The notes under the pieces were generated by a model that saw only the letters and a list, made by a program, of their open reading frames with translations, did not search any database and was not told where the DNA came from. A stretch of DNA of 32,000 nucleotides from Chlamydiota bacterium (GTDB lineage Bacteria; Auribacterota; JACPWU01): the NCBI GenBank assembly GCA_016196885.1, contig JACPWU010000063.1, positions 5,222-37,221 of the forward strand, read 5' to 3'. Positions 2,956-30,353 of the stretch are shown here, in pieces (positions within the stretch are counted from its first letter, which is position 1; each line of letters begins with the position of its first letter). Position numbers and translations under genes: made by a program.

Positions 2956-3426
2956 ATGAAAATGTTGGAATCAGCAACAGGTTTTTTTACTTCTCGTCTT
3001 CAAGACGCCATCGGATGGGCGAGGAAATATTCTATTTTCCAATATCCTTTTGTAACCGCCTGTTGTGGGATGGAATACATGGCGACGGCTGCTTCTCATT
3101 ATGACATGGATCGTTTTGGGGCAGGTCTGGTGCGATTTTCGCCTCGGCAATCCGATGTGCTTTTTGTGGTGGGGACCATCAGTCAGAAAATGGCGCCGAT
3201 CTTAAAGAAAATTTATGATCAGATATGTGAGCCCAAATGGGTGGTGGCCTTTGGCGTATGCACCTGTACGGGCGGGTTCTATGATAATTACGCAACGGTG
3301 ATGGGGATTGACACGATTATTCCGGTGGATGTTTATATTCCGGGATGTCCTCCCAGACCTGAGAATGTGCTGGATGGACTGATGAAACTTCAAGAGAAGA
3401 TTCAGAGGCAGAAACAAGAAGTATAA
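2956..3426 (+). CDS. nuoB: NADH-quinone oxidoreductase subunit B
   Basis: Starts at ATG 2956 (MKMLESATG), 5 nt after the nuoA stop. It carries the cluster N2 ligand motifs CCGMEY, VCTCTGG and PGCPP. Confidence 0.93.
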   Translation: MKMLESATGFFTSRLQDAIGWARKYSIFQYPFVTACCGMEYMATAASHYDMDRFGAGLVRFSPRQSDVLFVVGTISQKMAPILKKIYDQICEPKWVVAFGVCTCTGGFYDNYATVMGIDTIIPVDVYIPGCPPRPENVLDGLMKLQEKIQRQKQEV

Positions 3427-3511
3427 AAACAGTTTTGAGTTTTAAGTTCTTAGTTTTAAGTTTTTGTAATTCAAAACTAAAAATTCAAAGTTTAAAACTG
3501 TTTTTGAAAAT
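3427..3511. repeat. AT-rich imperfect inverted repeat of AGTTTTAAG-like words between nuoB and nuoC
   Basis: AAAAACAGTTTT (3426-3437) is exactly complementary to AAAACTGTTTTT (3493-3504). The arms are built of repeated (G/A)AGTTTTAAG-type words. Stops occur at 3424, 3436, 3443, 3451, 3457, 3467 and 3478. Confidence 0.7.
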
Positions 3512-4007: not shown

Positions 4008-5354
4008 ATGCAAACACAAGAAAAAGAAAAACAGACAGAAACACGTCACATGCTTTTAAATGTGGGCCCGAGTCATCCGGCCATGCATGGCGTGATTCGA
4101 TTTATTTTTGAGTTGGATGGAGAGACGATTGTCAGTGCGGATACAGAAATTGGATATCTCCATCGGGGTTTCGAAAAGATGTGCGAGGTGGGCCCGTACA
4201 ATCAGGCCATTCCTTATACGGATCGCCTCAATTATGTCTCTCCTTTAATCAATAATTTTGCCTATTGCCTGGCAGTGGAAAAATTGATGGGGCTTAAAGT
4301 GACAGAGCGCTGTCAATACATTCGCGTGATCATGAGCGAGATTTCACGTGTGACGGATCATCTCACCTGCATTGGGGCCACCGCAATGGAGTTGGGGGCG
4401 TTCACGGCTTTTTTATACATGATGAAGGCCCGAGAATTTTTATACGAATTGGTGGAGCAGGTGACGGGTGCTCGCCTGACTGTTTCTTACGGACGGGTGG
4501 GAGGTGTGAAGGCGGATTTACCGGAAGGCTTTGCGGACCAGACGCGGCAGGTTTTGAAAGAAGTTCGAAAGGTTTTAAAAGAGGTAGATAAACTTCTCTC
4601 CCGAAATCGGATTTTTGTGGATCGGGTGAAAGGGGTAGGTGTGATTTCGAAAGAAGACGCAATCGCTTATGGGATCACCGGCCCTTTTTTGCGTTCGACG
4701 GGGGTGAATTACGATGTCCGTAAGGCCCAACCTTATTTGATTTATGATCGCTTGAAATTTGAAATTCCTCTGGGAACAAATGGAGACAATCTAGACCGTT
4801 ATTATGTTCGAATGGAAGAAATGGAACAGAGCATGATCATGATCGAACAAGCCTTGGATCAAATTCCACCAGGGGTTGTGAGGATCCATGAGCAAGGGGA
4901 GCCGATGGTGGCTGCCCAAATGGTGGACGAGGCTAAAATGGGGCGCATTGCGGGAATTGCCCAGCGGAATGTTTTATTGGATCCAACACTTCAGGGGAGT
5001 ACAAAGGGATTTCATGAGAAGGTGAATGTGGAGGACAAAAAAACAGTTCTTCCTCCGAAAGAGGCGACGTATGGCAATATCGAGGGGCTCATGAATCATT
5101 TTAAATGGGTGATGTTCGGACATGGGATTCGTCCTCCCAAGGGGGAGGTTTATTTTCCTGTGGAAGGGGCCAATGGCGAGCTTGGTTTTTACATTGTGAG
5201 TGATGGAACGGAGCGGCCTTATCGGGTGCGGGTGCGGCCCCCTTGCTTTCCCATTATGGCAGCCATTGGAAAAGTATTGGAAGGGGGCATGATGGCCGAC
5301 GTGGTCCCTACTTTTGGGTCTGTGAATATGATTGCAGGGGAGCTTGATCGATAA
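4008..5354 (+). CDS. nuoD: NADH-quinone oxidoreductase subunit D (with an extra internal segment of about 45 aa)
   Basis: 448 aa. It has the N-terminal LNVGPSHPAMHGV motif and the C-terminal RVRPPCF...GSVNMIAGELDR region of the 49-kDa subunit. About 58 residues lie between IPPG and LPPKE, where E. coli NuoD has about 12. Confidence 0.93.
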   Translation: MQTQEKEKQTETRHMLLNVGPSHPAMHGVIRFIFELDGETIVSADTEIGYLHRGFEKMCEVGPYNQAIPYTDRLNYVSPLINNFAYCLAVEKLMGLKVTERCQYIRVIMSEISRVTDHLTCIGATAMELGAFTAFLYMMKAREFLYELVEQVTGARLTVSYGRVGGVKADLPEGFADQTRQVLKEVRKVLKEVDKLLSRNRIFVDRVKGVGVISKEDAIAYGITGPFLRSTGVNYDVRKAQPYLIYDRLKFEIPLGTNGDNLDRYYVRMEEMEQSMIMIEQALDQIPPGVVRIHEQGEPMVAAQMVDEAKMGRIAGIAQRNVLLDPTLQGSTKGFHEKVNVEDKKTVLPPKEATYGNIEGLMNHFKWVMFGHGIRPPKGEVYFPVEGANGELGFYIVSDGTERPYRVRVRPPCFPIMAAIGKVLEGGMMADVVPTFGSVNMIAGELDR

Positions 5355-5386
5355 GTTCAAAGGTTTAAAAGTTCAAAGGTTCAAAG
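5355..5386 (+). repeat. Four tandem 8-nt words GTTCAAAG/GTTTAAAA directly upstream of nuoE
   Basis: Words start at 5355, 5363, 5371 and 5379. Three contain an AAGG Shine-Dalgarno-like core, the last of which lies 4 nt before ATG 5391. Confidence 0.8.
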
Positions 5387-5390
5387 GACT

Positions 5391-6030: not shown

Positions 6031-7323
6031 ATGAAATCCTATCCCAAAATTCTTTCAAAAAATTTTGAGGTTCCTCATGCCCAACACATAGGGGTCTATC
6101 TCTCTGGCGGTGGTTACGAGGCGGCTCGGAAGGTCTATACTTCTTGGAAGCCAGAGCAGTTGATTGAGGAAGTCAAAAAATCTAATTTGCGAGGATTGGG
6201 CGGGGCTGGTTTTTCGACGGGGATGAAATGGGCTTTTATACCGAAAGATTCAACGCGGCCGCATTATGTGGTGGTGAATGCGGATGAGGGAGAGCCGGGG
6301 ACTTTTAAAGACCGCTATATTTTGTGCAAGGATCCGCACGCCCTTGTCGAAGGAATTCTCATCGCCTGCTTTGCCGTTGGGTCCCATAAAGCTTTCGTTT
6401 ACATTCGAGGGGAATATGTGGAGCCCATTCGTATTTTTAGAGAGGCCGTGCGAGAAGCCCATGAAAAGGGTTTTTTGGGAAAAAATGTTTTTGGCACAGG
6501 TTACGAGGTTGAAATTGTGATTCATCAGGGGGCGGGTGCTTATATTTGTGGAGAGGAGACGGCGCTTCTAGAATCTCTTGAGGGAAAAAAAGGATTTCCT
6601 CGTCTGAAGCCTCCCTTTCCAGCAGTTAAAGGTGTTTTCGGATGCCCCACCGTTATCAATAATGTAGAGACTTTGGCCTGTTTGCCTCCTATTGTAAATC
6701 TCGGGGCCGAGTGGTTTGCCAAATTAGGGTGCGAGAAAAATGGGGGGACGCGGCTTTACAGTGTCAGTGGCCATGTGAATCGTCCGGGCCTTTATGAATT
6801 GCCTTTGGGAACACCTTTGCGGGAAATCATTGAGGAACATGCAGGGGGTGTTTGGAAGGGACGTCAGCTCAAGGCAGTGATTCCGGGTGGAATTTCTGCT
6901 TCTATTTTGAGGTCGGATGAAGTTGACATCAAAATGGATTTTAATTCACTGGCCCGAGTTGGTTCCATGCTGGGTTCGGCGGGTGTGGTGGTGATGGACG
7001 AGACCACATGCATGGTCACAACCCTTTTGGTGGCGGCTCGTTTTTTTGCCCATGAATCTTGCGGCCAGTGCAGTCCCTGTCGAGAGGGGACAGGCTGGGT
7101 TCTGAAAATGATCGAGAGAATTTATGAGGGCCACGGGAGGTCTCAAGACTTGGATAATTTATTAGACATTGGAAAAAACATGATGGGTAACACCATCTGT
7201 GCCTTTGGGGATGCGGCGCCGACTCCGGTGATCAGTTATATCACGAAGTTTAGAGCAGAATTTGAGTATCATGTGCGGCATGGGAAGTGTGATTTAGAGG
7301 ACAGAAGTCAGAAGTCAGAATAA
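6031..7323 (+). CDS. nuoF: NADH-quinone oxidoreductase subunit F
   Basis: Starts at ATG 6031, preceded by AGGAG at 6021-6025 (the track starts at GTG 6028). It has the GGAGFSTGMKW FMN/NADH motif and the ESCGQCSPCREG 4Fe-4S motif. The last 8 codons (EDRSQKSE) are encoded by a repeat arm. Confidence 0.94.
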   Translation: MKSYPKILSKNFEVPHAQHIGVYLSGGGYEAARKVYTSWKPEQLIEEVKKSNLRGLGGAGFSTGMKWAFIPKDSTRPHYVVVNADEGEPGTFKDRYILCKDPHALVEGILIACFAVGSHKAFVYIRGEYVEPIRIFREAVREAHEKGFLGKNVFGTGYEVEIVIHQGAGAYICGEETALLESLEGKKGFPRLKPPFPAVKGVFGCPTVINNVETLACLPPIVNLGAEWFAKLGCEKNGGTRLYSVSGHVNRPGLYELPLGTPLREIIEEHAGGVWKGRQLKAVIPGGISASILRSDEVDIKMDFNSLARVGSMLGSAGVVVMDETTCMVTTLLVAARFFAHESCGQCSPCREGTGWVLKMIERIYEGHGRSQDLDNLLDIGKNMMGNTICAFGDAAPTPVISYITKFRAEFEYHVRHGKCDLEDRSQKSE

Positions 7324-7373
7324 AAAAATAAATAACATCCCTATTATTCTGAATTCTGTCTTCTGTATTCTGA
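7297..7373. repeat. Heptamer-word inverted repeat (CAGAAGT words) at the nuoF/nuoG junction
   Basis: The left arm GAGGACAGAAGTCAGAAGTCAGAAT (7297-7321) pairs with the right arm ATTCTGAATTCTGTCTTCTGTATTCTGA (7346-7373) at 21 of 25 positions. The loop is A-rich. The left arm contains the nuoF stop. Confidence 0.85.
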
Positions 7374-7392
7374 GTAACGAAAGTGATTTTGT

Positions 7393-8871
7393 ATGCCAAT
7401 ATTAAAAATTGATGGAAAAGACATAGAAGTTCCAGTCGGAACTTCTATCATTGAAGCGGCAAAAAAGGCCGGCATCGAAATCCCTCATTATTGTTATCAC
7501 CCTGGGCTTTCCGTTGCTGGAAATTGCCGTATGTGTTTGGTCGAAGTTGAGAAATTTCCCAAGCTTCAAATTTCTTGCTATACGCCTGTGACTGAGGGCA
7601 TGGTTGTTCACACGCAAAGTGAAAGGGTGAAGGACGCGCAGCAAGCCGTTCTCGAATTTCTCTTGGTCAATCATCCTCTCGATTGCCCCGTTTGCGATCA
7701 ATCAGGTGAGTGCGAGCTTCAAAATTATTATATGAAATACGGTCTCTATGACAGCCGCCTCATGGAAGATAAGGTCAAGAAACACAAGGCCGTTTCTATT
7801 GGTCCAACTGTGATGCTAGACGGTGAGCGTTGTGTTCTATGTTCTCGTTGTGTGAGATTTTGTGATGAAGTCACGCATACCCATGAAATGGGGATTGTGA
7901 ATCGTGGAGATCGTGCGGAAATTGAAGTTGCCCCGGGTAAAGAGGTAGACAATGACTATTCAGGAAATGTGGTGGATATTTGTCCTGTCGGGGCGCTTAC
8001 AGACAAAGATTTTAGATTTAAATGTCGTGTTTGGTTTTTGGCCCAAACGCCTTCTGTATGCCCAGGCTGTAGTCGAGGTTGCAACATTGAAATTCATTGG
8101 AATAAAGAGAGACCTTATCAAACTCCGGGAGAGAGGGTCATGCGTTTGAAACCGCGTTTCAACGCAGACGTCAATAAATTCTGGATTTGCGATGAAGGTC
8201 GTTACAATTACCATTGGATAGACCAGGGCCGGCTTTTGAAACCCATGCAAAAAAGGAGAGGTGTTCCCCATGAGGTTTCTTGGGAGGAGGCCTTCGGCAC
8301 TTTGTCGGGTCTTTTTTTAAGACCTCAGGAAATGGGAGTGATTGTCTCCACCGATATGACGAATGGAGATCTTGCGATGGCCCAGCAGCTTTTTGTCAGC
8401 GAGCTCAAGGTTAAAAATGTTGCTTATCAATGGATAAGAAAATCGGGTAAAGAAGACGAGCTCCTGATGAAGGCGGATAAAACGCCGAACACCCGAGGAG
8501 CTCAAGCCTTAGGATTTGAAGACCGATCAGGAGAGATTTATGAACAAATCGAAAAAGGTCAAATTAAAATCCTTTTCCTTTTTGGGCATAACTTGATGGA
8601 AATTTTGGGAAAAGATCAGGCAGAAAAAATGAGGTCTCATCTCGAGACCTTGGTGATTCTTGGCCCTCATGCCCATGAGGGTATAAATTTGGCCGATTGG
8701 GCCTTGCCTTCGGCAGTTTACGCTGAAAAAAACGGAACTTTTACAAATTTTGAGGGAAGGGTGCAAAAAATTTCTAAAGCCTTTCCTCCTATGGGAATGG
8801 CTAAGTCTGAACGAGAAATTTTGAAAGAAATGGCCCGACAGGCTGGAATTCACATAAACTTGACCGTGTAG
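7393..8871 (+). CDS. nuoG: NADH-quinone oxidoreductase subunit G (short form)
   Basis: 492 aa. It has an N-terminal 2Fe-2S ferredoxin-like region plus HPLDCPVCDQSGEC, CVLCSRCVRFC and CPVGAL cluster motifs. Only a truncated molybdopterin-like C-terminal part is present. Confidence 0.9.
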   Translation: MPILKIDGKDIEVPVGTSIIEAAKKAGIEIPHYCYHPGLSVAGNCRMCLVEVEKFPKLQISCYTPVTEGMVVHTQSERVKDAQQAVLEFLLVNHPLDCPVCDQSGECELQNYYMKYGLYDSRLMEDKVKKHKAVSIGPTVMLDGERCVLCSRCVRFCDEVTHTHEMGIVNRGDRAEIEVAPGKEVDNDYSGNVVDICPVGALTDKDFRFKCRVWFLAQTPSVCPGCSRGCNIEIHWNKERPYQTPGERVMRLKPRFNADVNKFWICDEGRYNYHWIDQGRLLKPMQKRRGVPHEVSWEEAFGTLSGLFLRPQEMGVIVSTDMTNGDLAMAQQLFVSELKVKNVAYQWIRKSGKEDELLMKADKTPNTRGAQALGFEDRSGEIYEQIEKGQIKILFLFGHNLMEILGKDQAEKMRSHLETLVILGPHAHEGINLADWALPSAVYAEKNGTFTNFEGRVQKISKAFPPMGMAKSEREILKEMARQAGIHINLTV

Positions 8872-8920
8872 TCGCCCGATTTATCGGGCAAATCCATTGC
8901 CCCATAAATGGGGCGACTAC
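8868..8920. repeat. Solo copy of the GTAGTCGCCC...GGGCGACTAC palindromic core (same core as the MITE)
   Basis: Outer 10-bp stem GTAGTCGCCC/GGGCGACTAC encloses two inner hairpins, GCCCGA-TTTA-TCGGGC and GCCCCAT-AA-ATGGGGC. The nuoG stop TAG (8869-8871) lies in the outer stem. Confidence 0.9.
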
Positions 8921-8930
8921 AAATAAAAAC

Positions 8931-10007: not shown

Positions 10008-10516
10008 ATAGAAGTGAGTTAACTTTTATTGAACGCCTTTATATCTTCGAAGCCCTGAAGGGCATTCTCCTCACCTCTCGTCATTTTTTTTGGAATCTTT
10101 TTTTGCATACCACTCATCTTTTTGGCTTGTTAAAAAATAAAAGTGCAGCTGTGACTGTGCAATACCCTGATGAAATAAGGCCTTACGCGCCTCGTTTGAG
10201 AACACGTCATCACCTGGTTCCTCGAGCCGATGGAAGTCCTCGATGTGTAGCCTGCATGCTTTGTGAAACAGTATGCCCTGCCAAATGTATTTACATCATT
10301 GCAGGAGAGCATCCTGATCCCAACGTTGAAAAAGTGGCAAAGCGCTTTGATCTTGATTTAGGTAAATGTGTTTATTGCGGTTTTTGCGTGGAGGTGTGTC
10401 CTGAGGATGCGATTCGCATGGACACCCAAATCATGAATATAGCGGCGTACAGTCGGGAAGAAATGCTTTTGGATATCAATGAACTTTTAAGACCGGGGAG
10501 CAGAAAGCAGTCGTGA
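10004..10516 (+). CDS. nuoI: NADH-quinone oxidoreductase subunit I
   Basis: Starts at ATG 10004 in an ATGA overlap with the nuoH stop (the track starts at 9938 inside nuoH). It has two CxxCxxCxxxCP motifs (CVACMLCETVCP, CVYCGFCVEVCP). Confidence 0.92.
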   Translation: MNRSELTFIERLYIFEALKGILLTSRHFFWNLFLHTTHLFGLLKNKSAAVTVQYPDEIRPYAPRLRTRHHLVPRADGSPRCVACMLCETVCPAKCIYIIAGEHPDPNVEKVAKRFDLDLGKCVYCGFCVEVCPEDAIRMDTQIMNIAAYSREEMLLDINELLRPGSRKQS

Positions 10517-10589
10517 GTCGTGAGGGGTGAGTCGTTAGTAAAAAATAATGCCTTTAGAACTCACGACCCACGACAGACGACTCACGACT
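10509..10589. repeat. Heptamer-word inverted repeat (GTCGTGA/GGGGTGA words) between convergent nuoI and the MurC-like gene
   Basis: The left arm AGTCGTGAGTCGTGAGGGGTGAGTCGT carries TGA at 10514 (nuoI stop), 10521 and 10528. The right arm ACTCACGACCCACGACAGACGACTCACGACT ends in the stop of the minus-strand gene. Confidence 0.88.
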
Positions 10590-11943
10590 ATCTACATTTT
10601 TGAATTTTCCTAACTATCTGATGCGCCAGTTCTGTCAACGTATGATCTCTCGCTCCCATCACCACGATGTTGTCTCCCTTTTTAGCTTTTTTTCGCAGTA
10701 TTTGAAGAAGTGTTTCACGATCTTGGCAAAAAAAAGTGGGGATTTTTTTCTTTTTTAGAACTTCCACAAAACTTTCTGAACTGATGCTTCTATCTGCTGT
10801 TCCACCCGCATCATAAATGGGTAGGAGATAGAGTTGGTCTTGAGGGCGAATCATCTTTGAAAGAATCTCAATCAGTTCTTGCCATTGATGCTTTAAAGGG
10901 CCAAACCCATGTGGTTGATAGACAGCAATCACCCGATCACTTTTGTCTTGAAGGGCGTTTAACGTCGCTTCAATCTTGGCGGGGTTATGAGCAAAATCAT
11001 CATACACTCGAATGTTGTTTGTCTTTCCAATCAATTCCAGTCTTCTTTCGACGCCTTGAAAGTTTTCAAGGCCCCTTTGAATGTGATGGATGGGAATCCC
11101 TATGATTTGGGCCGTGGCGATGGAGGCCAGGGCATTCATGATGTTGTGAACGCCCGGTATTTTTAAATGGTAAGGGGCTTCATCCACTTCAAAACGAGAT
11201 CCTTCCTTCAATAAGCGAATGTGATCGGCCTTTGATTTTCCGAAATAAAAAGATTTTTCTTTGGGAAGAGATAAATTTTTTGTTTCAGGACAGTCTGAAT
11301 TAATGACAATGGCTTTTCCCGTATGGAGGACGAGATGTTGAAAAAGATCATGGAGCTCTTTTAAGTCTTTATGGTCTTTGGAAATATTTGTGATCACAGA
11401 AATTTTAGGGCGATAATGAACGAGACTCCCGTCGCTTTCGTCTGCTTCTGCCAGAAGCCAAGGCCCTTTTCCAAAATGCCAATTGGAACTTTTTCCCTCC
11501 TCTGGAAAGTTTTTCACCTGGCCTCCGCATAGAAAGGAAAAATCCCAGCCTGCGGCTTTTAAAATGTGAGCCATCATGCCTGTCACGGTTGTTTTCCCGC
11601 TGGTTCCAGAAACAGCGATTCCCTCTTTTTGGTTAAAAATTTGGGCCAGCATTTCGGCTCGGGTGACCCGAGTGAACTTTTGCTTCTGGGCATGGACAAA
11701 ATCAGGGTTGTCTGATTCAACGGCGCTTGAATAAATAACAGCCGTTAAATCTGAAGGCAAATGGGCTCCATCTTGGGGAACCACAACGATTCCAGAGTTT
11801 TTGAATTGTTCTTGAAGCGATTCAGATTTCTTCTGATCAAAGGATCGGTCTGAGCCCATGACTTTATGCCCTTGGGCTCTTAGGAAATGAGCCAAAGAAC
11901 TCATTCCTGTCCCTGCCATTCCAACGAAAAAATATTGAGACAT
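10588..11943 (-). CDS. murC: Mur ligase family protein, MurC-like (UDP-N-acetylmuramate--L-alanine ligase)
   Basis: Starts at ATG (complement of 11941-11943), giving MSQYFFVGMAGTGMSSLAHFLRAQGHKVMGSD. It has the P-loop GTSGKTTVTGM and EADESDGS...NISKDH, which resembles MurC rather than Mpl. It is not located in a dcw cluster. Confidence 0.7.
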   Translation of the reverse strand: MSQYFFVGMAGTGMSSLAHFLRAQGHKVMGSDRSFDQKKSESLQEQFKNSGIVVVPQDGAHLPSDLTAVIYSSAVESDNPDFVHAQKQKFTRVTRAEMLAQIFNQKEGIAVSGTSGKTTVTGMMAHILKAAGWDFSFLCGGQVKNFPEEGKSSNWHFGKGPWLLAEADESDGSLVHYRPKISVITNISKDHKDLKELHDLFQHLVLHTGKAIVINSDCPETKNLSLPKEKSFYFGKSKADHIRLLKEGSRFEVDEAPYHLKIPGVHNIMNALASIATAQIIGIPIHHIQRGLENFQGVERRLELIGKTNNIRVYDDFAHNPAKIEATLNALQDKSDRVIAVYQPHGFGPLKHQWQELIEILSKMIRPQDQLYLLPIYDAGGTADRSISSESFVEVLKKKKIPTFFCQDRETLLQILRKKAKKGDNIVVMGARDHTLTELAHQIVRKIQKCR

Positions 11944-12544: not shown

Positions 12545-12661
12545 TCTTTTTTGATGTTGCCCTCGCTTTTTAGTATGAAATAGTTTCTAACTTAAATCAA
12601 GCGAATTTGGCTTGAGGCAAAAACGAATGCGTTTGTATGGGTAAACATATGAAAAAAATAT

Positions 12662-12794
12662 TAGGCATATGCACTTGATTCCCCTAGTAGTCGCCCGATT
12701 CATCGGGCAATCCATGCAAGGGGCACAAGGCTGCCCCATAAATGGGGCGACTACAAATTCTTTCTATCTGAGGGGAATCAAGTGCATATGCCTA
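12662..12794. mobile_element. MITE copy 1 (133 bp; perfect 24-bp TIRs; 8-bp target-site duplication AAAAATAT)
   Basis: The left TIR TAGGCATATGCACTTGATTCCCCT (12662-12685) is exactly complementary to 12771-12794. The flanking direct repeats AAAAATAT at 12654-12661 and 12795-12802 are identical. The interior is the GTAGTCGCCC...GGGCGACTAC core. There is no coding capacity. Confidence 0.88.
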
Positions 12795-12941
12795 AAAAAT
12801 ATTTATCCTTTTTATTTTTATTCTTTCATTGGGTCGAGCTTTCTCGGAAGAATTTTTGGTGAATCATGTTCAAAACACCTTTATGAAGTACCAGAATATG
12901 GTTTTTCATCTTATTATCCTGCATCTTGACGGGTGATAAGA

Positions 12942-14507: not shown

Positions 14508-14769
14508 ATTCCCCCTCCTTAATCAATGGTTAGACAAACTTATCAAAAACACCACTTTATATTAAGCAAAAATTGTACCAAGAGACGCTTCTGGGATGAT
14601 AAAACAATTTTTTATAAGAATTTTCTTTGAATCCTTGTTAAAAATTGCTCATCTTGAGAAAATTCGGCCTTGAAATTTGCTTATCGAAACCCTTTCAATG
14701 TGAAAAGGCGTGTCAAAAACACGTGACAATATAAAAAATCTTATGGTATGAATACAAGGAAATAATTTA

Positions 14770-14843
14770 TAGCCTTCAGCTTTCAGCATTCAGCTAACAG
14801 GGAAAGCAGAGTTTTTGCTGAATGCTGTTTGCTGAACGCTTTA
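14770..14843. repeat. Heptamer-word inverted repeat (CAGCNTT words) in the divergent porin/pepA promoter region
   Basis: The left arm TAGCCTTCAGCTTTCAGCATTCAGC has (T/C)AG at 14770, 14777, 14784, 14791 and 14798. The right arm GCTGAATGCTGTTTGCTGAACGCT has CTG at 14818, 14825 and 14832. It ends 16 nt before the pepA ATG. Confidence 0.85.
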
Positions 14844-14858
14844 TGAAAAGGAAAAACT

Positions 14859-16331
14859 ATGCAAATCGAATGTGTCAGTACAAAAGAGAGTGCAATCAAA
14901 GAATGTGATGCGATTATTCTGGGGGTGACGGAGGGTAAAAAAGATTTAGGTTTTCTTCGCGATTTCTTAAGTGAAAATCTTGTTAAAAGGATTGAAAAAT
15001 ATTTTACCCGAGCAGGAGCCCCCATTCGTAAAAACGACATTCTTTCTTTTGATGGGGATGGACAAATTATTTACACAGTGGTTCTTTCCAAAGAGCCCTC
15101 CATGGAAAATATTCGCCAGGCTTGTGGGCACACGGTCGACTTTGTTTGTGGCCAAGTCCATCGAAATGTTGCTGTGTTGGCTGATTCTTTTGGAACGAAG
15201 GAAGGAAATCTGACGGATCGTGTGGAGGCAATGGCAGAGGTTATTGACCTGGCCCTTTATCGTTTTGATCCCTTTAAGCCAAAGGATCAAAAGAGGAAAG
15301 ATTTAAAAACATGTCAGTTTATCTTTCGCGATGGCAAGGACGTTACGAAAGCGCTCAAGGCCGTTGAAATAGGCAGAACAGTCTCTGAAAGTGTCAATTT
15401 TACCCGTGACCTGGTCAACACCCCTTCCAATGAACTTCCGCCCCGTGTTTTAGCGGACCGGGCTTCTCAAATGGCGAAGGAGTGCAATATTTCAATCAAG
15501 ATTTACGATGAAAAAGAACTTCAGAAAATGAAAATGGGGGGGATTCTCGCCGTTTCTCAGGGAAGTGTTCAGGAGCCTCGAATGATTGTTCTGGAGTATG
15601 GAGATCCAAAGAAGCCGGTAGACTTTGCCTTTGTAGGCAAGGGCGTTACGTTTGACAGTGGCGGGATTTCGATTAAGCCCAGTGATGGAATGGAAAAGAT
15701 GAAATATGATATGGCGGGAGGCGCTGCTGTGCTAGGTATTTTGAGAACGGCAGCTAAACTAAGTTTAGATGTTCATATAGTAGGAATTGTTCCTGCGGCT
15801 GAAAATATGCCCAGTGGGGCGGCTTATCGGCCTGGAGATGTGATTTGGATGGGTTCAGGAAAGAGTGTAGAGGTTTTAAATACGGATGCCGAGGGACGTT
15901 TGCTTTTGGGAGACGGGCTTTTTCTTGCCGAGCGGTATAAGCCTAAAATGGTGGTGGATTTGGCCACATTGACTGGGGCCTGCGTGGTGGCCTTGGGAAC
16001 AGTGGTTGTAGCGGTTTTGGGCAATGATCCAAAAGTGATTTTGAAAATTAAGGAGGCCGGTGAGCTTTCGGGAGAACGCGTTTGGGAACTTCCTCTTTGG
16101 GATGATTATTTTGATCAGATTAAAAGTGATGTGGCTGAGATTAAAAATGTGGGAGGTAAAGGAGGTGGGACGATTACAGCAGCCATGTTTCTCAAGCAGT
16201 TTGTGAATTATCCTTGGGCGCATTTGGATATTGCAGGGACGGCCTGGGCGGAAGAAAAGAAGCCTTATTTCCAAAAAGGGGCAACGGGTGTGGGGGTTAG
16301 GTTGCTGACGAAAATGATGAGAAAACAATGA
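14859..16331 (+). CDS. pepA: Leucyl aminopeptidase (M17)
   Basis: 490 aa with the M17 signature NTDAEGRLLLGD, VGKGVTFDSGGISIKP and the metal-ligand context. Confidence 0.93.
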   Translation: MQIECVSTKESAIKECDAIILGVTEGKKDLGFLRDFLSENLVKRIEKYFTRAGAPIRKNDILSFDGDGQIIYTVVLSKEPSMENIRQACGHTVDFVCGQVHRNVAVLADSFGTKEGNLTDRVEAMAEVIDLALYRFDPFKPKDQKRKDLKTCQFIFRDGKDVTKALKAVEIGRTVSESVNFTRDLVNTPSNELPPRVLADRASQMAKECNISIKIYDEKELQKMKMGGILAVSQGSVQEPRMIVLEYGDPKKPVDFAFVGKGVTFDSGGISIKPSDGMEKMKYDMAGGAAVLGILRTAAKLSLDVHIVGIVPAAENMPSGAAYRPGDVIWMGSGKSVEVLNTDAEGRLLLGDGLFLAERYKPKMVVDLATLTGACVVALGTVVVAVLGNDPKVILKIKEAGELSGERVWELPLWDDYFDQIKSDVAEIKNVGGKGGGTITAAMFLKQFVNYPWAHLDIAGTAWAEEKKPYFQKGATGVGVRLLTKMMRKQ

Positions 16332-16427
16332 AGAATGAAGAATGAAGAATGAAAAGTGAAGAGTAGAAAATGAAAAACAAGGGAAGGTTGCGTTCTTCAT
16401 TTTTCACTTTTCATTCTTCATTGTTTT
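16322..16427. repeat. Heptamer-word inverted repeat (GAAGAAT words) spanning both stops of convergent genes; perfect period-7 stop ladders on both strands
   Basis: On the + strand, stops fall at 16329, 16336, 16343, 16350, 16357, 16364 (TAG) and 16371. TCA (TGA on the minus strand) falls at 16397, 16404, 16411 and 16418. AAAACAATGAAGAATGAA (16322-16339) is exactly complementary to TTCATTCTTCATTGTTTT (16410-16427). Confidence 0.92.
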
Positions 16428-17961
16428 TTTCTAGCCAGTTCTTCACATCAAAGCTTGCAGATATGTTGAGCTTGCCCTGGTCCATTCTTCCATAAGCGAG
16501 GATGTTTATCTCGTTGTCGGGATGGACGTAGAGGAGAAAATTCAGGCTTTTTGGAAAAGAGGCGGTCCTTTTTGAAAATTCAGAATCGGAGGAGACCTTG
16601 CTTTCCTTCGTTTTTTCTATGGCCTTTAGGAAATCTTCTTCTGAATTAAATTGAAGTCCTATCCAGTGCTGTTCCTCTTGATTCTGAGATTCTTTTAAAA
16701 AAGTGCTGTACAAGGATTTTTCCTTCCATTGAATTTGATCACACGAGCTGCCTTCCCTTTTTGAGATTTGCGCCTGATCGGCCTCTTGGAAAAAGCGGTT
16801 GAAATCTAGTCTTGTCTTTGTCCCGTCTTCCCTTTTTAGAGTGGCGACCACGAGGGCCTTTGCCTTTTTCTCTCCAGGGAAAAAATAGAGACTGACAAGA
16901 TTTTGAATGTGGGCCAGATAATTTCGGAAGAGGGCAGGGGGACCAGCATTTTCTTCCATGGAAAGAACCTTTTCAATTTCGACGGGTGTATTGAATGAAA
17001 TTTTCATCAGACCCAATACATTTTCAGGAGGGTTCGTTTCTAGAAGATTTTGAGTGGGAACAGAATTTTTAAATTGAGATTCTAATTTAGATCTTGTCAC
17101 GGGTTCGATTTGTGTATTCAGGTCCAATTTATTATTTTCAAAATGAAATCTTGTGACGATATGGCGGATTTGGGGGAGATTGTTTTCTAGGGATTCAAGG
17201 GCCAGACTCAGCAGTTTCGATTTGTCAGAGGAGAGAATGGGGTTCAGTTTCACTTTCAGGCTTTCGAGATCTTCATGATAGGCTTCGTAGGCCTGCTGGG
17301 TGTTGAGAACCATTTCGCAGTCCATTTTTTCTGAAGACGCTTGGCCTGTCTGGGATGAAAGGAAGATCTCAGGTTGAAATCCTTTCAAGATGTTCCGATC
17401 TCCTGAAACGATGACGAGACTCCCTCGAAAGGCCACATAATATTGAAAAAGCACTTTCTTTTGGAATTGCATCACATCTGTCTTGGGGTCTTTTTCAAGA
17501 GCTTTTAAATAGGCTTCTCTGTCAAATTGGGTCCTTTCTTCGGTGAATTCCTCAATCGGTTGATCTCGGGTCGCTTCCTTACGTGTAAAGCCACTCCCTC
17601 CAAAAAGTCCTTTTCCAAATCCCATGAGAAAAAGGGCCTTGTCCTTCAAGTGGGCAGAGTAGAGAAAGGGGTTGGGATGGGTTTTAGGGTCTAAGCGGAT
17701 GTAGAGAATGTCTTGGGATAAATCAAAACTTTCCATTTTTGTGTTTTTGAAAAAGATGGAGAAAATGAGTCCCGTGAGGGTTTGGCTCGATCGGCCGATC
17801 GGTGATAAAAGGGCGTCTATGTGAGTCAGGGTGTCCGATAGATTTTGGAACGAGATGTAACCCAGGCACGTTTCAGGAAGGCCCGAGGCGTTCTCGCTTG
17901 AAGAGATCGGCGTCCAGGAGCAAAAGAGAAAGTAGAAGATTGGAAGAACGAATTTTTTCAT
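16411..17961 (-). CDS. Secreted hypothetical protein (516 aa)
   Basis: Long ORF with the signal peptide MKKFVLPIFYFLFCSWTPISSSE. I recognise no family motif. Confidence 0.7.
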   Translation of the reverse strand: MKKFVLPIFYFLFCSWTPISSSENASGLPETCLGYISFQNLSDTLTHIDALLSPIGRSSQTLTGLIFSIFFKNTKMESFDLSQDILYIRLDPKTHPNPFLYSAHLKDKALFLMGFGKGLFGGSGFTRKEATRDQPIEEFTEERTQFDREAYLKALEKDPKTDVMQFQKKVLFQYYVAFRGSLVIVSGDRNILKGFQPEIFLSSQTGQASSEKMDCEMVLNTQQAYEAYHEDLESLKVKLNPILSSDKSKLLSLALESLENNLPQIRHIVTRFHFENNKLDLNTQIEPVTRSKLESQFKNSVPTQNLLETNPPENVLGLMKISFNTPVEIEKVLSMEENAGPPALFRNYLAHIQNLVSLYFFPGEKKAKALVVATLKREDGTKTRLDFNRFFQEADQAQISKREGSSCDQIQWKEKSLYSTFLKESQNQEEQHWIGLQFNSEEDFLKAIEKTKESKVSSDSEFSKRTASFPKSLNFLLYVHPDNEINILAYGRMDQGKLNISASFDVKNWLEKNNEE

Positions 17962-19230: not shown

Positions 19231-19234
19231 CAAT

Positions 19235-19292
19235 GGTGAGAGGTGAGGGGTGAGTTTTAAAAGCATTTGTTTTTACTCACCTCTCACCCCTC
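19235..19292. repeat. Heptamer-word hairpin (GGTGAGA/GGTGAGG words)
   Basis: GGTGAGAGGTGAGGGGTGAGT ... ACTCACCTCTCACCCCTC. Stops occur at 19237, 19244, 19251 and 19258 with an exact 7-nt period. Confidence 0.88.
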
Positions 19293-19321
19293 GCGCTTGA
19301 ATTTAAAAATGGAGGAATGTA

Positions 19322-20443: not shown

Positions 20444-20449
20444 AGGCAG

Positions 20450-20527
20450 TTGTGAGGGGTGAGTCGTGAGTGGTGAGTAAAAAAAAACTCCGTTAAAACT
20501 AACCCCTCACGACTCACCCCTCACGAC
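20450..20527. repeat. Heptamer-word inverted repeat (GTGAGGG/GTGAGTC words) between the binding-protein gene and livH
   Basis: The left arm carries TGA at 20453, 20460, 20467 and 20474. The right arm CCCCTCACGACTCACCCCTCACGAC is complementary at about 23 of 25 positions. The loop is A-rich. Confidence 0.9.
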
Positions 20528-20533: not shown

Positions 20534-21433
20534 ATGCAATTCCTACAACAACTCATCAACGGCATCAGCTGGGGAAGCATTTATGCCCTGATCGCCTTGG
20601 GATACACCATGGTGTATGGGGTTTTGCGCCTGATTAATTTTGCCCATGGCGATATTTACATGCTGGGGGCTATGTTTGGCTATTATGTGGCGGTCTTTCT
20701 CGGTGTGGCCGAACATGCCTCTGGTGTGAGAGTGCTGTCTGTTGTTCTGATCAGCATGCTTGGATGTGGATTGATCGGGGTCGGCATTGAACGATTTTGC
20801 TATCGTCCTTTGAGAAAAGCCCCCCGCCTCGCGGCCTTGATGACGGCTGTTGGAGTCTCTCTTCTTTTGGAAAATGGGGGACAGTTGATTTTTGGGGCCG
20901 ATCCTAAATTTTTTCCTCCCCTCATTCACACCCGAGAAATTTTTAGGTTTCACGAAATTGTTCTTAATAACATTCAACTGATGATCTTTGCGGTTTCTCT
21001 CCTTTTGATGTTCCTTCTTCACTGGATTGTGATGAAAACTCGCATGGGAAAGGCCATGCGGGCCGTGTCTTTTAGCCATGATGCGGCGGGTTTGGTAGGG
21101 ATTCCTGTGAATCGGGTGATCAGTTTTACTTTTTTTCTAGGCTCTCTCTTGGCTGCGGCCGCTGGTATTTTGGTGAGTCTTTCCAATCCCAAAGTGGAGC
21201 CTCTCATGGGGATTATGCCGGGGCTGAAGGCTTTTGTGGCCGCGGTATTGGGCGGGATTGGAAACATGATGGGTGCGATGATCGGGGGTTTGATCATGGG
21301 GATTTCTGAAGTGCTCGTCTCCGGCTACATTTCAAGCACGTATCGAGACGCCTTCGCCTTTTTTATTTTAATTTTTATTTTGCTTTATAAACCGTCTGGA
21401 CTTTTGGGGAAGACGGGACCGGAGAAATTATAG
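20534..21433 (+). CDS. livH: Branched-chain amino-acid ABC transporter permease
   Basis: 299 aa and polytopic. It has a LivH-like N-terminus MQFLQQLINGISWGSIYALIALGYTMVYG. Confidence 0.9.
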   Translation: MQFLQQLINGISWGSIYALIALGYTMVYGVLRLINFAHGDIYMLGAMFGYYVAVFLGVAEHASGVRVLSVVLISMLGCGLIGVGIERFCYRPLRKAPRLAALMTAVGVSLLLENGGQLIFGADPKFFPPLIHTREIFRFHEIVLNNIQLMIFAVSLLLMFLLHWIVMKTRMGKAMRAVSFSHDAAGLVGIPVNRVISFTFFLGSLLAAAAGILVSLSNPKVEPLMGIMPGLKAFVAAVLGGIGNMMGAMIGGLIMGISEVLVSGYISSTYRDAFAFFILIFILLYKPSGLLGKTGPEKL

Positions 21434-21509
21434 CGTTCAGCGTTTAGCGTGCAGCGTACAGAAAAACCAGCATCACTCCTGTCCGCTATACGCTGTCCGC
21501 TGTCCGCTA
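21431..21509. repeat. Heptamer-word inverted repeat ((T/C)AGCGTN words) between livH and livM
   Basis: TAGCGTTCAGCGTTTAGCGTGCAGCGTACAG (21431-21461) against CTGTCCGCTATACGCTGTCCGCTGTCCGCTA (21479-21509) gives 23 of 31 complementary positions, in 4-5-bp blocks at a 7-nt period. Confidence 0.85.
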
Positions 21510-23305: not shown

Positions 23306-24022
23306 ATGCTAAAAATCAACAACTTAATCGTCTCATACGGCAACATCAAGGCCCTTCAAGGAGTTTCCCTTGAAGTAAAAGAAGGGGAAATTGTGACTTT
23401 GATCGGAGCCAATGGGGCAGGGAAGACCACTCTTTTAAAGACGATTTCGGGATTGATTGCGCCCGTTTCGGGAACGATTTATTATTCTAAAAATGAAAAA
23501 AATAGTTCTTTAAATCATATGGCTCCCCATGAAATTGTGAGGCTGGGTGTATCTCAAGTCCCGGAAGGGAGAATGGTTTTTGCGAATTTGTCCGTGGCTG
23601 AAAATTTAGATTTAGGGGCTTTTTTGAGAAGGGATGCGCGTGAAGTTAGAGAAAGTCTTGATAAAGCCTTTCAACTTTTTCCAAGATTGAAAGAGCGAGT
23701 GACCCAAAATGCAGGTACTTTAAGCGGAGGAGAGCAGCAAATGCTTGCCATTGCCCGTGCTTTAATGGCAAAGCCCAAACTCCTTTTAATGGATGAACCT
23801 TCATTGGGTCTTGCACCCATTTTGGTAAAAGAAATTTTTGAAACCATTCGAAAAATCAATCAAGAAGGTCTAAGCATTTTACTCGTAGAGCAAAATGCGC
23901 ATCTTGCATTGCAATTGGCCCATCGGGCGTATGTATTAGAGACAGGTAAAATTGTTCTTGAAGGTCCTGCACGTGAGTTGGCTATGAATGAAGAGGTGAA
24001 GAAGGCGTATTTGGGGGCGTGA
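23306..24022 (+). CDS. livF: Branched-chain amino-acid ABC transporter ATP-binding protein
   Basis: 238 aa with Walker A GANGAGKTT, signature LSGGEQQ, Walker B LLLMDEP and KAYLG at the C-terminus. Confidence 0.92.
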   Translation: MLKINNLIVSYGNIKALQGVSLEVKEGEIVTLIGANGAGKTTLLKTISGLIAPVSGTIYYSKNEKNSSLNHMAPHEIVRLGVSQVPEGRMVFANLSVAENLDLGAFLRRDAREVRESLDKAFQLFPRLKERVTQNAGTLSGGEQQMLAIARALMAKPKLLLMDEPSLGLAPILVKEIFETIRKINQEGLSILLVEQNAHLALQLAHRAYVLETGKIVLEGPARELAMNEEVKKAYLGA

Positions 24023-24028
24023 TTAAAT

Positions 24029-24108
24029 GTCTAAGTGCTTAAGTGTCTAAGTGATTAAGTTATAAGGAAGGATTTGTTTTTACTTAAGCACTTGGTTACG
24101 CACTTATT
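24029..24108. repeat. CTTAAG-word hairpin element, copy R; period-8 TAA ladder
   Basis: TAA occurs at 24024, 24032, 24040, 24048 and 24056. AAGTGCTTAAG (24033-24043) is exactly complementary to CTTAAGCACTT (24083-24093). It lies between convergent livF and the hybrid kinase gene. Confidence 0.88.
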
Positions 24109-25767: not shown

Positions 25768-25903
25768 TAGGCATATGCACTTGAGGATTCCCCTAGTAGT
25801 CGCCCGATTCATTGGGCAATCCATGCAAGGGGCACAAGGCTGCCCCATAAATGGGGCGACTACAAATTCTTGCTATCTGAGGGGAATCAAGTGCATATGC
25901 CTA
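25768..25903. mobile_element. MITE copy 2 (136 bp; about 97% identical to copy 1; 8-bp TSD CTCTTTGT/TTCTTTGT)
   Basis: It has the same TIRs and core as 12662-12794. It differs by a 3-nt GGA insertion in the left TIR and two substitutions. The flanking octamers 25760-25767 and 25904-25911 match at 7 of 8 positions. Confidence 0.88.
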
Positions 25904-27534: not shown

Positions 27535-27743
27535 CTCTCCCTATATGTTTGGAATGATCCTATGTTGATTATTATACCTTATATTTTTAGAGAAATGAAA
27601 GAATTGTATATAACTAATTGATTAAGAAATAGTTATAAATTAACTCAAATTGTTTTACTTTTTACTTTTCACTTGCCATCCGTGTCTTTATTAGAGAAAT
27701 CCAGGGTTTATTTCATTTATTTCTATAGGTACAGGGGGCAGTT

Positions 27744-29525
27744 TTGACACAGAAAATTCTTTCTCAACTTATTGCGCTGATACGTGTTAGCTTTCTTCTG
27801 CCTCTCTCGCTCTCTTTGGTTCTAGATCCTTCTCTTCTTTCTCAACCCCTTTTTGCTCAAAGCTTGGTTTCTAAGCCCCTCAACATGGAGGCTTACTCAA
27901 CTCCTTCTTTTTTAGACATGGATCTCTCTGAAGAGAGCGGGATGATTCAAAGACGATGGGTTTCACCAAACGCCTTCCAAGAAAAGAAAGTGGTGATTGT
28001 CCAGGATATTCACGTGCAGCCTGAGGCCCAGAAGAACATTGCCTGGATGATGGAGCGTTTGGTCCAGGATTATGGCGTTCATTGGATTGGGGTGGAAGGT
28101 GCTTCTGGGCCCCTCGATATTTCCCGGCTTGAGAAGGTCGAGGCCAGTTTGAAGAAGAAAGAGGAAGTGACGCATCAATATTTAAAGAGAGGAATTCTAA
28201 CAGGTCCTGAAATGCTTTCCATTATCAAGGATGGAAAATTGGGTTTGAAGTTCTGGGGAATTGAGGATGTCGAACTTTATCGGGAGAATCTAAAATATTT
28301 TAGAGAGACGGTGAGGGCTCGAGAAAAAGTGATGGAGGACTTAAAAGGATGGATCCAAGAGATTCGTCAATTGGAAAAGAAAACTTATTCAAAAGAGTTG
28401 TGGGAGTTTGAGGAAAAGGCGTGGGCGTATGAGGAGGGGAAGTTGCCCCTAGATCAGTGGGTGGAATATTTAAAAACAGTCGATAGTCGACAGTCGATAG
28501 TCGATAGTTCAAAAGGGATAAATTTATTTTTTCCGTGGACTATGGTCTATGGACTGTGGACTCAAGATTATGTAAATACATCTCTCATTCTTCAAATCAG
28601 TTCTCTTGAGAAAAATTTGGATCTTAAAAAAGTAGAAGAAGAGCGCAAAACGTTTTTGGAATCTTTAGAAAAGAAATGGGTGAAGGAAGAAATGGCCCAT
28701 GTTTTAAAGGACAGTTTGCTCTTTCGTTTGGGTCGCATGAGCGAGGCGAAATATTATGAGACTTTAAGCCCTTATCTTAAGAAGGTTTCAGGCTCCTTTC
28801 CCAATCTTGAAAAATACATCCAGGCGGTGCTGATTCAAAAAGAATTAGATTGGCCAGCTCTGTCAAAAGAAATTTTAAAACTTGAAGATGAAGTGAGAGA
28901 TAAGCTTATGCAGTCTGAAGAAGAGAAGAAATTGTATAAGGTGTCGGAACAATTTAAGGCAATTGGGAAAATATTGAATTTGGAACTTACACGGGATGGG
29001 TTTGAGGAATATCGAGATAAAGAATGGGGAAGTGTTCAGAAGGTGAGGGAGGATGTTGAATATTTGATGATTCAAAATCAAAAATCAAAAATCAAAAATC
29101 TCCTGGCTGGGCTTCAGTCTTCGGCATCCTTCTACCAAGCCGCACTCAAGCGAGATCATGTTCTATTTGCTAATTTAATGAATCAAATGGAGAAGGAAAA
29201 AATTCAAGAGGCGGCGGTGGTGGTGGGTGGATTCCATAGTTCAGCTTTAGAAGAAAATCTTAAAGAGAAAGGAATTTCTTTTATTGTTCTGGCGCCCCAG
29301 TTAAAGCATGTAGAGGAATTGACCCCTTATGTAGACCTCATGATGGATGATGAAATCCTCATTCCTGAAGAGAATAAAAATCAGCACATGGCCCCTCCGC
29401 ATGAGGTGGATTCTGGTGAAGCGATTGTTAAAAATCTTGGACTATCTGGACGGGCAGAGAAAAATATTGAAGAGATGCAGAGGGGGATGGGAGGACAGGA
29501 GACTTCTGAAGCTCTATCTTTTCAG
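27744..29525 (+). CDS. Secreted or membrane-anchored TraB/GumN (Tiki-like) family protein; the 3' boundary is not defined by a stop codon
   Basis: TTG 27744 lies 5 nt after AGGGGG. The N-terminal hydrophobic signal/anchor is ILSQLIALIRVSFLLPLSLSLVL...LFAQS. Family motifs are VVIVQDIH, HWIGVEGA and ALKRDHVLFANLM...AAVVVGGFHSSALEENLKEKGISFIVL. Protein-like Glu/Lys-rich composition continues to about 29520. The end is placed at CAG 29523-29525, one transition away from TAG. Confidence 0.6.
28479..28562. repeat. Heptamer-word inverted repeat (GTCGATA / ATGGACT words) located in frame inside the TraB-like CDS
   Basis: Left-arm words start at 28479, 28486, 28493 and 28500. Right-arm words start at 28535, 28542, 28549 and 28556. 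The arms are complementary at about 17 of 25 positions. The element encodes VDSRQSIVDSSKGINLFFPWTMVYGLWT. Confidence 0.85.
29072..29100. repeat. Tandem heptamer TCAAAAA (about 4 units) in frame inside the TraB-like CDS
   Basis: TCAAAA, then TCAAAAA three times, then TC. It encodes QNQKSKIKN. On the minus strand it reads as a period-7 TGA ladder. Confidence 0.85.
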
Positions 29526-30073: not shown

Positions 30074-30137
30074 TCGAAATTTATTTTTCCGCCTTGCGGC
30101 TTTGGAAAATGTCAGAAGTCAAGACTTGACCCCAGAT

Positions 30138-30353
30138 TCAAGCAGCAGTGACAGGAATGTCGATCGTTACCCTACCGAGCTCCTCGATGGGCAAACGGGT
30201 GCTGGCATCCAGGATCTCGAGACCAAAGAGCCTCCCCCTTTTGTCGATGTCGCACAGAATTCCGTCTCGAATTTTAATCGTCTGACTGATTTTAGACTTT
30301 TTCTGGAACTGAATATAGAGGGCATCAGCCCGGCTGTCATAATTTATTTTCAT
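30138..30353 (-). CDS. DUF2283-family small protein
   Basis: 71 aa. MKINYDSRADALYIQFQKKSKISQTIKIRDGILCDIDKRGRLFGLEILDAS follows the DUF2283 pattern (YD..aDalYi ... D.d..G.l.GiEil.AS). Confidence 0.7.
   Translation of the reverse strand: MKINYDSRADALYIQFQKKSKISQTIKIRDGILCDIDKRGRLFGLEILDASTRLPIEELGRVTIDIPVTAA

Follow-up and report, generated by a model that had tools for sequence, protein, structure and literature searches.

Hairpins built from opposed arrays of heptanucleotide units have already been reported in other bacteria. In cyanobacteria, hairpins of 7-bp short tandemly repeated repetitive (STRR) sequences lie between hupS and hupL, and roles in transcript stability, translation coupling and termination have been proposed for them (PMC2670836). 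Xanthomonas genomes carry 70-75 convergent GGGAATC pairs each, and it was noted that no detailed literature on heptameric repeats existed at that time (Rehm et al., 2015; PMC4692102). Geobacter metallireducens has eight opposite-strand pairs of five heptanucleotides each with the consensus MTYCTGA, e.g. between proB and proA, which were termed "class 3 global regulator sites" (Aklujkar et al., 2009; PMC2700814). Direct repeats of TAACTGA are abundant in Beggiatoaceae and are also found in cyanobacteria and Bacteroidetes (MacGregor, 2015; PMC4679880). The element described here lies at positions 16322-16427 of a stretch of 32 kb (the window) from contig JACPWU010000063.1 of a Chlamydiota bacterium (assembly GCA_016196885.1; Auribacterota in GTDB), between the convergent genes pepA and a gene for a 516-aa protein. 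Genome-wide density of such elements is judged from this window alone.

The junction is a heptanucleotide simple sequence repeat (SSR) hairpin, in which two opposed arrays of the unit AATGAAG fill the convergent spacer and overlap both gene ends. pepA (14859-16331, plus strand) is an open reading frame (ORF) for an M17 leucyl aminopeptidase of 490 aa (Pfam Peptidase_M17, E = 5e-124), and the ORF for the 516-aa protein (16411-17961, minus strand) has no Pfam domain. The left (5') arm occupies 16322-16380 on the plus strand and consists of AAAAC followed by seven heptamer units, as seen with Tandem Repeats Finder (TRF), as a lag-7 array and by unit parsing. It is followed by a non-repeat centre, GGGAAGG (16381-16387), and by a right (3') arm of four to five units (16388-16427, plus strand), which is seen with TRF, in the inverted repeats I1, I4 and I6 and by alignment. 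TRF finds period 7 in both arms, with 6.9 copies on the left and 4.3 on the right, and the inverted repeats across the junction are 32-38 nt long and 79-91% complementary. The widest pairing extends the hairpin to 16319-16430. A run of seven T (T7), read from the sequence, lies just 3' of the stem on the plus strand (16424-16430) and is mirrored by AAAA at 16322-16325; on the minus strand, TTTTCTC comes after the stem. The junction thus shows the features of a heptanucleotide SSR inverted pair, i.e. a tandem array, a pairing opposite array, many sites in the window and convergent polarity with the G-rich array 5' (G-C = +7 in the 5' arm).

Each gene ends inside one of the arms. On the plus strand, TGA is found at 16329, 16336, 16343, 16350, 16357 and 16371 and TAG at 16364, so that stops occur in all three frames over 16329-16373. 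The minus strand carries four TGA (TCA on plus) at the same 7-nt spacing, at 16397, 16404, 16411 and 16418, and thus span 16397-16420. The pepA stop (TGA, 16329-16331) is the first rung of the plus-strand ladder, 7 nt into the left arm, and closes a protein ending in MMRKQ. The stop of the 516-aa gene is the rung at 16411-16413, and the right arm encodes the last four to six codons of this gene (KNNEE-stop; the protein ends in WLEKNNEE). The initial annotation had described both ladders, the two gene stops among their rungs and a perfect complementarity of the outer 18 nt of the arms. Reading of the sequence and a scripted check confirm these points: the stops on the plus strand are exactly 7 nt apart, and AAAACAATGAAGAATGAA (16322-16339) and TTCATTCTTCATTGTTTT (16410-16427) are exact reverse complements. 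Its statement that the two genes end within the same hairpin in different frames (RKQ-stop and NNEE-stop) is supported as well, with the stops in opposite arms. The two ladders amount to one observation because the arms are complementary. Four successive TGA-N4 occur four times in the window, where shuffles predict 0.02, and ladders of at least four stops at lag 7 number three on the plus and one on the minus strand, against 0-2 at lags 5, 6, 8, 9 and 10.

The units of the two arms record how the hairpin was built. The left arm reads AAAAC AATGAAG AATGAAG AATGAAG AATGAAA AGTGAAG AGTAGAA AATGAAA, and the reverse complement of the right arm reads AAAAC AATGAAG AATGAAA AGTGAAA AATGAAG AACGCAA. 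An ordered block of diversified units, AATGAAG AATGAAA AGTGAA, is common to both, and the arms are therefore copies of one another. When the left arm is aligned, with gaps allowed, to the reverse complement of its partner, only two gaps are needed, of exactly 14 nt and 7 nt, which argues for gain or loss of whole units by slippage. The arms thus go back to an inverted duplication of a block whose units had already diversified, and they have since diverged only by whole-unit insertions and deletions. The left arm is longer by three units in total; the initial annotation had proposed slippage by whole units, which holds, together with an excess of a single unit, which does not. Template switching is known to homogenise the arms of inverted repeats (PMC7202029; PMC8604942), and switching between the two arms of the junction, selection for pairing, or both could preserve their complementarity.

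The predicted fold is a long hairpin on both strands, at -38.9 kcal/mol (z = -6.4) and -33.9 kcal/mol (z = -6.6), and none of 200 shuffles folds as well. The predicted stem has 36-43 bp and is rich in A+T (G+C of about 29% in the unit), and the unpaired loop is about 26-42 nt long, which exceeds the non-repeat centre because the extra units of the left arm have no partner. The minimum free energy structure accounts for just 0.7-2% of the ensemble and is unlike the centroid, because repeated arms can pair in several registers.

The junction hairpin (H5) is one of nine in the window. Eleven lag-7 arrays were found in the window, or 16 at a looser threshold, compared to 0-2 at any other lag from 4 to 12. 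These arrays pair into nine long hairpins (-24 to -51 kcal/mol), each with its own unit, of which eight are intergenic. The nuo genes hold two of them: H1 (3424-3506, unit AGTTTTA, flanked by A5 and T5) in the nuoB-nuoC spacer and H2 (7288-7379, unit CAGAAGT / ATTCTGA) in the nuoF-nuoG spacer, where the nuoF frame crosses the left arm and ends at TAA 7321-7323. H3 (10509-10589, unit AGTCGTG) lies between nuoI and a convergent Mur-ligase gene and repeats the arrangement of the junction, since both genes stop at its arms (TGA 10514-10516, and CTA on the plus strand at 10588-10590); in one relative (L084) the nuoI and Mur-ligase genes overlap and have no spacer. H4 (14768-14843, unit AGCTTTC) is found in a divergent spacer and lies 15 nt before the start codon of pepA. 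Past the junction, H6 (19231-19299, unit GGTGAGR) lies between a histidine-kinase gene and livK, H7 (20449-20527, unit AGTSGTG / AGGGGTG) in the livK-livH spacer, and H8 (21431-21509, unit AGCGTTC) between two liv permease genes. H9 (28475-28563, unit AGTCGAT) lies in frame inside a large coding region on the plus strand. Several of these hairpins sit inside operons (nuo, liv) that must be transcribed through. The operon hairpins nearly fill their spacers: on one side the stem base lies at a stop codon, and on the opposite side the following start codon is 4-22 nt away from it.

The same architecture is found far outside the lineage of the window. A metagenome scan for closer relatives returned distant phyla only, and these loci, fetched via pepA, were used as a background set of about 160 unrelated loci comprising 2.1 Mb (Nitrospirota, Acidobacteriota and others). 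These loci have more arrays at lag 7 than at any other period (74, compared to 21-25 at lags 6, 8 and 9), and the density of lag-7 arrays in the window is about ten times that of the background. A reverse-complement partner lies within 120 nt of 32 of the 74 background arrays, against none in a reverse-only control. Among 42 hairpins whose gene context is clear, 28 lie between co-directional, eight between convergent and six between divergent genes. Where the base of a stem faces the 3' end of a gene, it is within 8 nt of the stop codon in 23 of 41 cases and within 15 nt in 30 of 41 (median 1 nt). A survey of the class covered 48 period-7 hairpins from the window and loci L004-L168. The 5' arm has more G than C in 39 of 46 hairpins (p = 2e-6), whereas 156 non-periodic perfect hairpins used as a control gave 74:56. 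The triplets AGT (20 vs. 8.2 expected), TCA (11 vs. 2.8) and CAG (10 vs. 4.1) are enriched in the units of 5' arms.

Comparison with relatives of the locus gives a mixed picture. The nearest pepA in the GTDB species set belongs to a Candidatus Auribacterota metagenome-assembled genome (67% identity), and pepA relatives reach at most 68% identity, with clade loci at 62-68%. Seven clade loci mostly keep the gene order of the window, i.e. a leftward porin gene, rightward pepA, a leftward gene for a protein of five hundred-odd residues and rightward livK, and the C-terminus of PepA lies within 0-3 residues of the ends of its relatives. A word-indexed search with the 516-aa protein returned no homologue but itself; homologues in the same syntenic place are 502-518 aa long, share 30-37% identity with it and end in K/E-rich tails that exceed its own in length. 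Translation of the right arm beyond the stop gives EKNNEE-stop-KVKNEERN, and since the homologues end K/E-rich, the right arm probably grew from A/G-rich DNA encoding the K/E-rich C-terminal tail of this protein. Three other contigs with the same pepA (one from NCBI, two from Logan), compared for unit-number polymorphism at the junction, are 100% identical over 231 nt and thus uninformative. The hairpin is specific to the lineage of the window, because the pepA junction of no clade relative carries a period-7 hairpin. One relative (L169) has an ordinary short hairpin there, and in another (L172) the genes overlap. A different structured element, conserved between L084 and L004, occupies about 130 nt at their pepA junctions (L084:11475-11605 and L004:2265-2400; AAAACCTCTGAAAAAGGC...). 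It is closed by a long-range stem and may represent either a small RNA or a mobile element.

The livK-livH spacer behaves differently. A hairpin with lag 7 as the strongest autocorrelation (0.40-0.62) is found there in five of five clade members, comprising the window (20449-20527) and all four relatives that reach this spacer (L084:14350-14431, L086:9405-9459, L004:5152-5246 and L169:5945-6050). The units differ across the five lineages (AGTSGTG, nnTGCGT, CCGTnnT, AnTCGTA and GGnnnTT), and elsewhere in those four relatives period-7 hairpins are rare. At this site, the hairpin persists in position and architecture while the sequence of its unit turns over. The initial annotation had named two findings that would count against its account, namely unrelated sequence without periodicity at the junction of relatives, or a spacing that is a chance feature of a single locus. 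The first holds in part, as the junction of the relatives is unrelated and non-periodic at 62-68% identity in pepA; the second does not hold, as the pattern recurs in nine hairpins across the window.

Taken together, the junction is best explained as a heptamer SSR hairpin that changes by whole-unit slippage, carries its stops incidentally and provides an RNA hairpin shared by the 3' ends of both transcripts, and a probability of roughly 60% is assigned to this explanation as a whole. A hairpin of high stability (-34 to -39 kcal/mol) with several pairing registers would form in both convergent transcripts and would act as a 3'-end structure for each. On the pepA strand it would have a terminator-like layout of A4, stem and T7, and on the other strand U4 would follow the stem. 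The same structure would also block 3'-exonucleases, a role that has been proposed for repetitive extragenic palindromic (REP) elements and STRR hairpins (PMC2670836). The shared 3'-end role is likely, as read from the layout only. The position between convergent genes, the A run before the stem and the T7 after it are those of intrinsic bidirectional terminators.

Several findings weigh against this explanation. Canonical intrinsic terminators have a G+C-rich stem of 5-14 bp and a loop of 3-8 nt, and the AT-rich stem of 36-43 bp, the long loop and the periodic mismatches of the junction are unlike them; the T run after the stem is the feature that the two share. A scan for promoter and terminator consensus sequences did not report the hairpin, to which it is blind because of its loop limit of 8 nt, and found terminators no more often than in shuffles. 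Sister elements lie in essential operons: H1 has the same layout of A5, stem and T5, yet its place between nuoB and nuoC makes efficient termination implausible, and most hairpins within operons lack a T run. With six of 42 hairpins in divergent spacers and one in a coding region, the elements are not tied to transcript ends, and the pepA junction of the clade relatives does without one. Scored symmetrically on the sense RNA, G.U mismatches exceed A.C in the clade (17-18:8-10) but are no commoner in the class (47:48), although ordinary post-stop hairpins give only 132:102 in the same test, so that the power of the test is low. Mismatches by transversion are seen repeatedly at fixed positions of the unit, which suggests that pairing is not tightly selected.

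Many of the same observations would be expected if the hairpin were a neutral or self-perpetuating by-product of mutation without a function of its own, in which slippage makes the arrays, fold-back or template switching makes their inverted copies, and the element spreads through tolerant DNA up to limits set by flanking genes. The units are specific to their loci and the arms differ by whole-unit indels. Hairpins occur in every type of spacer, and even in frame in a gene with only the in-frame stop removed. The absent G.U bias on the sense strand, the periodic and uncompensated transversions and the hairpin-free junction of the relatives all fit such a process, and spacers filled up to the stop codons are what would be expected of an expansion limited by coding sequence. 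Heptanucleotide repeats are also the commonest class of long prokaryotic SSR (Mrazek 2007, as summarised in PMC4679880). However, five lineages with PepA proteins of only 62-68% identity have kept the livK-livH hairpin, though such hairpins are rare elsewhere in the relatives. Further, two ortholog pairs from distant genomes of other phyla outside the clade (L076:3467-3577 with L117:2828-2932, and L115:7730-7875 with L051:7776-7943) have identical hairpin arms, whereas their loops are unalignable and of unequal length and the coding DNA on either side has an identity of about 80-85%; this conservation points to purifying selection on the stems. The strong polarity of the arms is not obviously predicted by a symmetric neutral process either. 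A purely mutational origin is thus possible but unlikely, and the heptamer hairpin with a shared 3'-end role is preferred to it.

A more far-reaching proposal is that period-7 hairpins are a distinct class of intergenic element that crosses phyla, rather than a mere by-product of slippage. Four regularities may speak for it: the polarity, an AGT/TCAG core, stem bases that lie at stop codons, and positions that are kept during sequence turnover. The proposal is put forward very tentatively, as its probability is low. Were there a dedicated mechanism, it is conceivable that a ribosome-sensitive hairpin links termination of one cistron with read-through or re-initiation at the cistron that follows; alternatively, the hairpins could conceivably be built by a specific repair process of the fold-back or repeat-addition type. 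Either form, if true, would explain the dominance of the 7-nt period among long bacterial SSRs.

The element might instead act at the level of DNA, with a protein coating the 7-bp repeats or with a cruciform affecting replication, recombination or supercoiling. Ribbon-helix-helix proteins of the omega/ParG type bind heptad arrays. The complementarity is strand-symmetric and lacks a G.U bias, and the polarity, with a G-rich 5' arm on both strands, belongs to the duplex and not to one transcript. Hairpins are also found in divergent promoter spacers (e.g. H4), and the enrichment of AGT, TCA and CAG could represent a shared recognition core. Binding of integration host factor (IHF)/HU or of a global regulator has been proposed for the paired heptanucleotide sites of Geobacter (Aklujkar et al., 2009; PMC2700814). 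Units such as AGTTTTA, AGTCGTG, AATGAAG, AGCGTTC and AGTCGAT are, however, too different for one sequence-specific protein, no candidate binding protein was identified, and the tight placement at stop codons points to a constraint at the level of RNA or translation. A DNA-level role is therefore considered improbable.

The initial annotation took the stops as the point of the element, i.e. a selected ladder that ends translation in every frame at both gene ends and could, for example, catch frameshifted or read-through ribosomes before they reach the hairpin or the antisense gene. The seven plus-strand and four minus-strand stops cover all frames and each gene uses a rung, H3, H6 and H7 are arranged alike, and all three frames are closed by 15 of 48 5' arms compared to five of 48 3' arms. 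However, this excess is accounted for by the G/T/A-rich composition of 5' arms, and a three-frame ladder is automatic for any TGA-bearing heptamer because 7 = 1 mod 3. When the letters of each unit were permuted as a null, stop-bearing arrays were found at the rate set by composition, both in the window (12 of 16 arrays on either strand vs. 11.1 expected) and in unrelated bacteria (42 of 74 vs. 41.9). Likewise, sense stops in the arms of the 48 hairpins number 17 against 20.0 expected in 5' arms and 15 against 14.1 in 3' arms. H2 and H4 have the unit that bears a plus-strand stop in the distal arm, the consensus unit of H8 has no stop triplet, and H4 lies where no ORF ends. The stop ladder is an incidental side effect of a unit that holds TGA, and stops are not enriched in the class.

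The hairpin inside a gene, H9, is instructive in this regard. Its host ORF is open from 27729 to the end of the window (32000) on the plus strand and belongs to a giant-protein gene. The N-terminal domain has thousands of homologues, and H9 lies in this conserved domain, where about 19 residues from its loop and 3' arm form an insertion relative to 15 homologues. TAG occurs at 28484, 28498 and 28505, and the rung at 28491 is absent, with CAG in place of TAG (GAC-AGT and not GAT-AGT); this is the only rung that would be in frame. Stops are tolerated where they are harmless and removed where they are harmful, and are not the purpose of the repeat. A selected ladder is accordingly very hard to sustain, and the designed three-frame stop ladder gives way to the simpler reading of a heptamer hairpin with incidental stops.

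Further repeats were seen in the same ORF. The array (AAAATCA)x4 at 29067-29104 encodes QNQKSKIKN, and a homologue (P0127) has KIKNQKSKS, the peptide expected from an AAAATCA-type heptamer array, in a different variable linker. Heptamer arrays may thus recur inside the gene family of the H9 host ORF. An ORF of 183 aa with clear coiled-coil heptads (29522-30073, minus strand) lies antisense within the stop-free plus-strand frame of 27729-32000 and is built on a period-21 DNA repeat at 29694-29749.

Insertion of a miniature mobile element of the miniature inverted-repeat transposable element (MITE), REP or bacterial interspersed mosaic element (BIME) type would fit an intergenic palindrome that is absent at the same junction of relatives, in a window that does hold a true multi-copy palindrome, but such an origin is rejected as the nine hairpins share their period and no sequence, no target-site duplication can be seen, the arms consist of internal repeats instead of being unique terminal inverted repeats, and neither blastn against plasmids nor Rfam above threshold gave a match, all of which leaves it with hardly any probability.

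The multi-copy palindrome is a separate element at 8867-8921, 12652-12804 and 25768-25903 (GTAGTCGCCCGATTxATCGGGCA ... TGCCCCATAAATGGGGCGACTAC) and looks like a MITE or a REP-type repeat. Its two longer copies are nested in an outer inverted repeat, TAGGCATATGCACTTGA, and one copy fills the nuoG-nuoH spacer. Nearly every spacer of the window has some tandem-repeat structure. A direct array of ATTTTAG/ATTTTGG (5.7 copies, 1934-1976) lies downstream of tRNA-Leu without a clear inverted partner, and the same unit also forms hairpin arms in the Blastocatellia loci L076 and L117. Direct arrays of period 8 without an inverted partner are found in the nuoD-nuoE spacer (GTTCAAAG x4, 5353-5387) and after the last liv gene (GTGATTAA x5, 24019-24060).

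The genome provides a set of natural experiments on such hairpins, which lie over two gene ends, in essential operons and in a reading frame, and hold one position across a deep clade. The regularities at the level of the class, i.e. polarity, AGT/TCAG core, stop placement and fixed position with sequence turnover, are the most interesting by-product of the analysis.

Database searches place the junction in no known family. With Rfam at gathering thresholds, the whole window gives tRNA-Leu only; at E <= 1, the hairpin matches just generic models of long-hairpin miRNA precursors, far below threshold. No plasmid DNA similar to the hairpin was found with blastn. The REP and BIME elements of enterobacteria are similar to the junction in being intergenic hairpins near stop codons; they stabilise upstream mRNA and often follow genes for binding proteins of ATP-binding cassette (ABC) transporters, which the placement of the livK-livH hairpin resembles. 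Liang, Rudd and Deutscher are said to have found in 2015 that REPs within about 15 nt of a stop codon affect translation. Unlike the junction, REPs form one conserved family of about 35 nt that is mobilised by REP-associated tyrosine transposases (RAYT) and has no internal 7-nt periodicity. Membership among REP/BIME elements or MITEs was rejected, as near-identical copies are lacking among the hairpins of the window, which share a period and not a sequence.

Among the heptamer systems, the TAACTGA repeats resemble the junction as intergenic arrays at gene boundaries with a stop triplet in the unit, for which a post-transcriptional role was proposed; however, they have a single unit, are almost all direct (one inverted in 170) and lie just upstream of start codons. 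The paired inverted arrays of Geobacter lie in operon spacers as in the window, and the right arm of H2 (7344-7379, ATTCTGA x4) fits their consensus MTYCTGA, but the Geobacter sites have been read as binding sites for IHF/HU, belong to a single unit family and have no described overlap with gene ends. The AGT, TCA and CAG enrichment of the class recalls both the TAACTGA and the MTYCTGA units. It recalls the STRR units CCCCAGT and CAACAGT as well.

The Xanthomonas pairs are like the junction in having two heptamer arrays on opposite strands, which are capable of forming a stem-loop or cruciform and have the G-rich array as the 5' arm. They differ in that one G-rich, G-quadruplex-capable family is used throughout the genome, whereas AATGAAG is A-rich, locus-specific and forms no G-quadruplex; without a G run, the junction unit does not belong to GGGAATC / GGGANTN. 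The cyanobacterial STRR sequences share with the junction tandem 7-nt units, intergenic positions including those within operons, and arrays that pair as hairpins, with examples between hupS and hupL and upstream of hoxW (PMC2670836). They comprise few genome-wide unit families (e.g. CCCCAGT) in heterocystous cyanobacteria, whereas units in the window are nearly locus-specific and its host is an uncultured bacterium, and the junction differs in that its arms overlap the stops of two convergent genes. The STRR heptamer sequences are reportedly given in Mazel 1990 and Vioque 1997. The junction is not an STRR in the strict sense, since AATGAAG is not known as a unit of the STRR1-3 families and the host is no heterocystous cyanobacterium. 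What is different here is the host lineage, the near site-specificity of the units and the fact that the arms overlap two gene ends.

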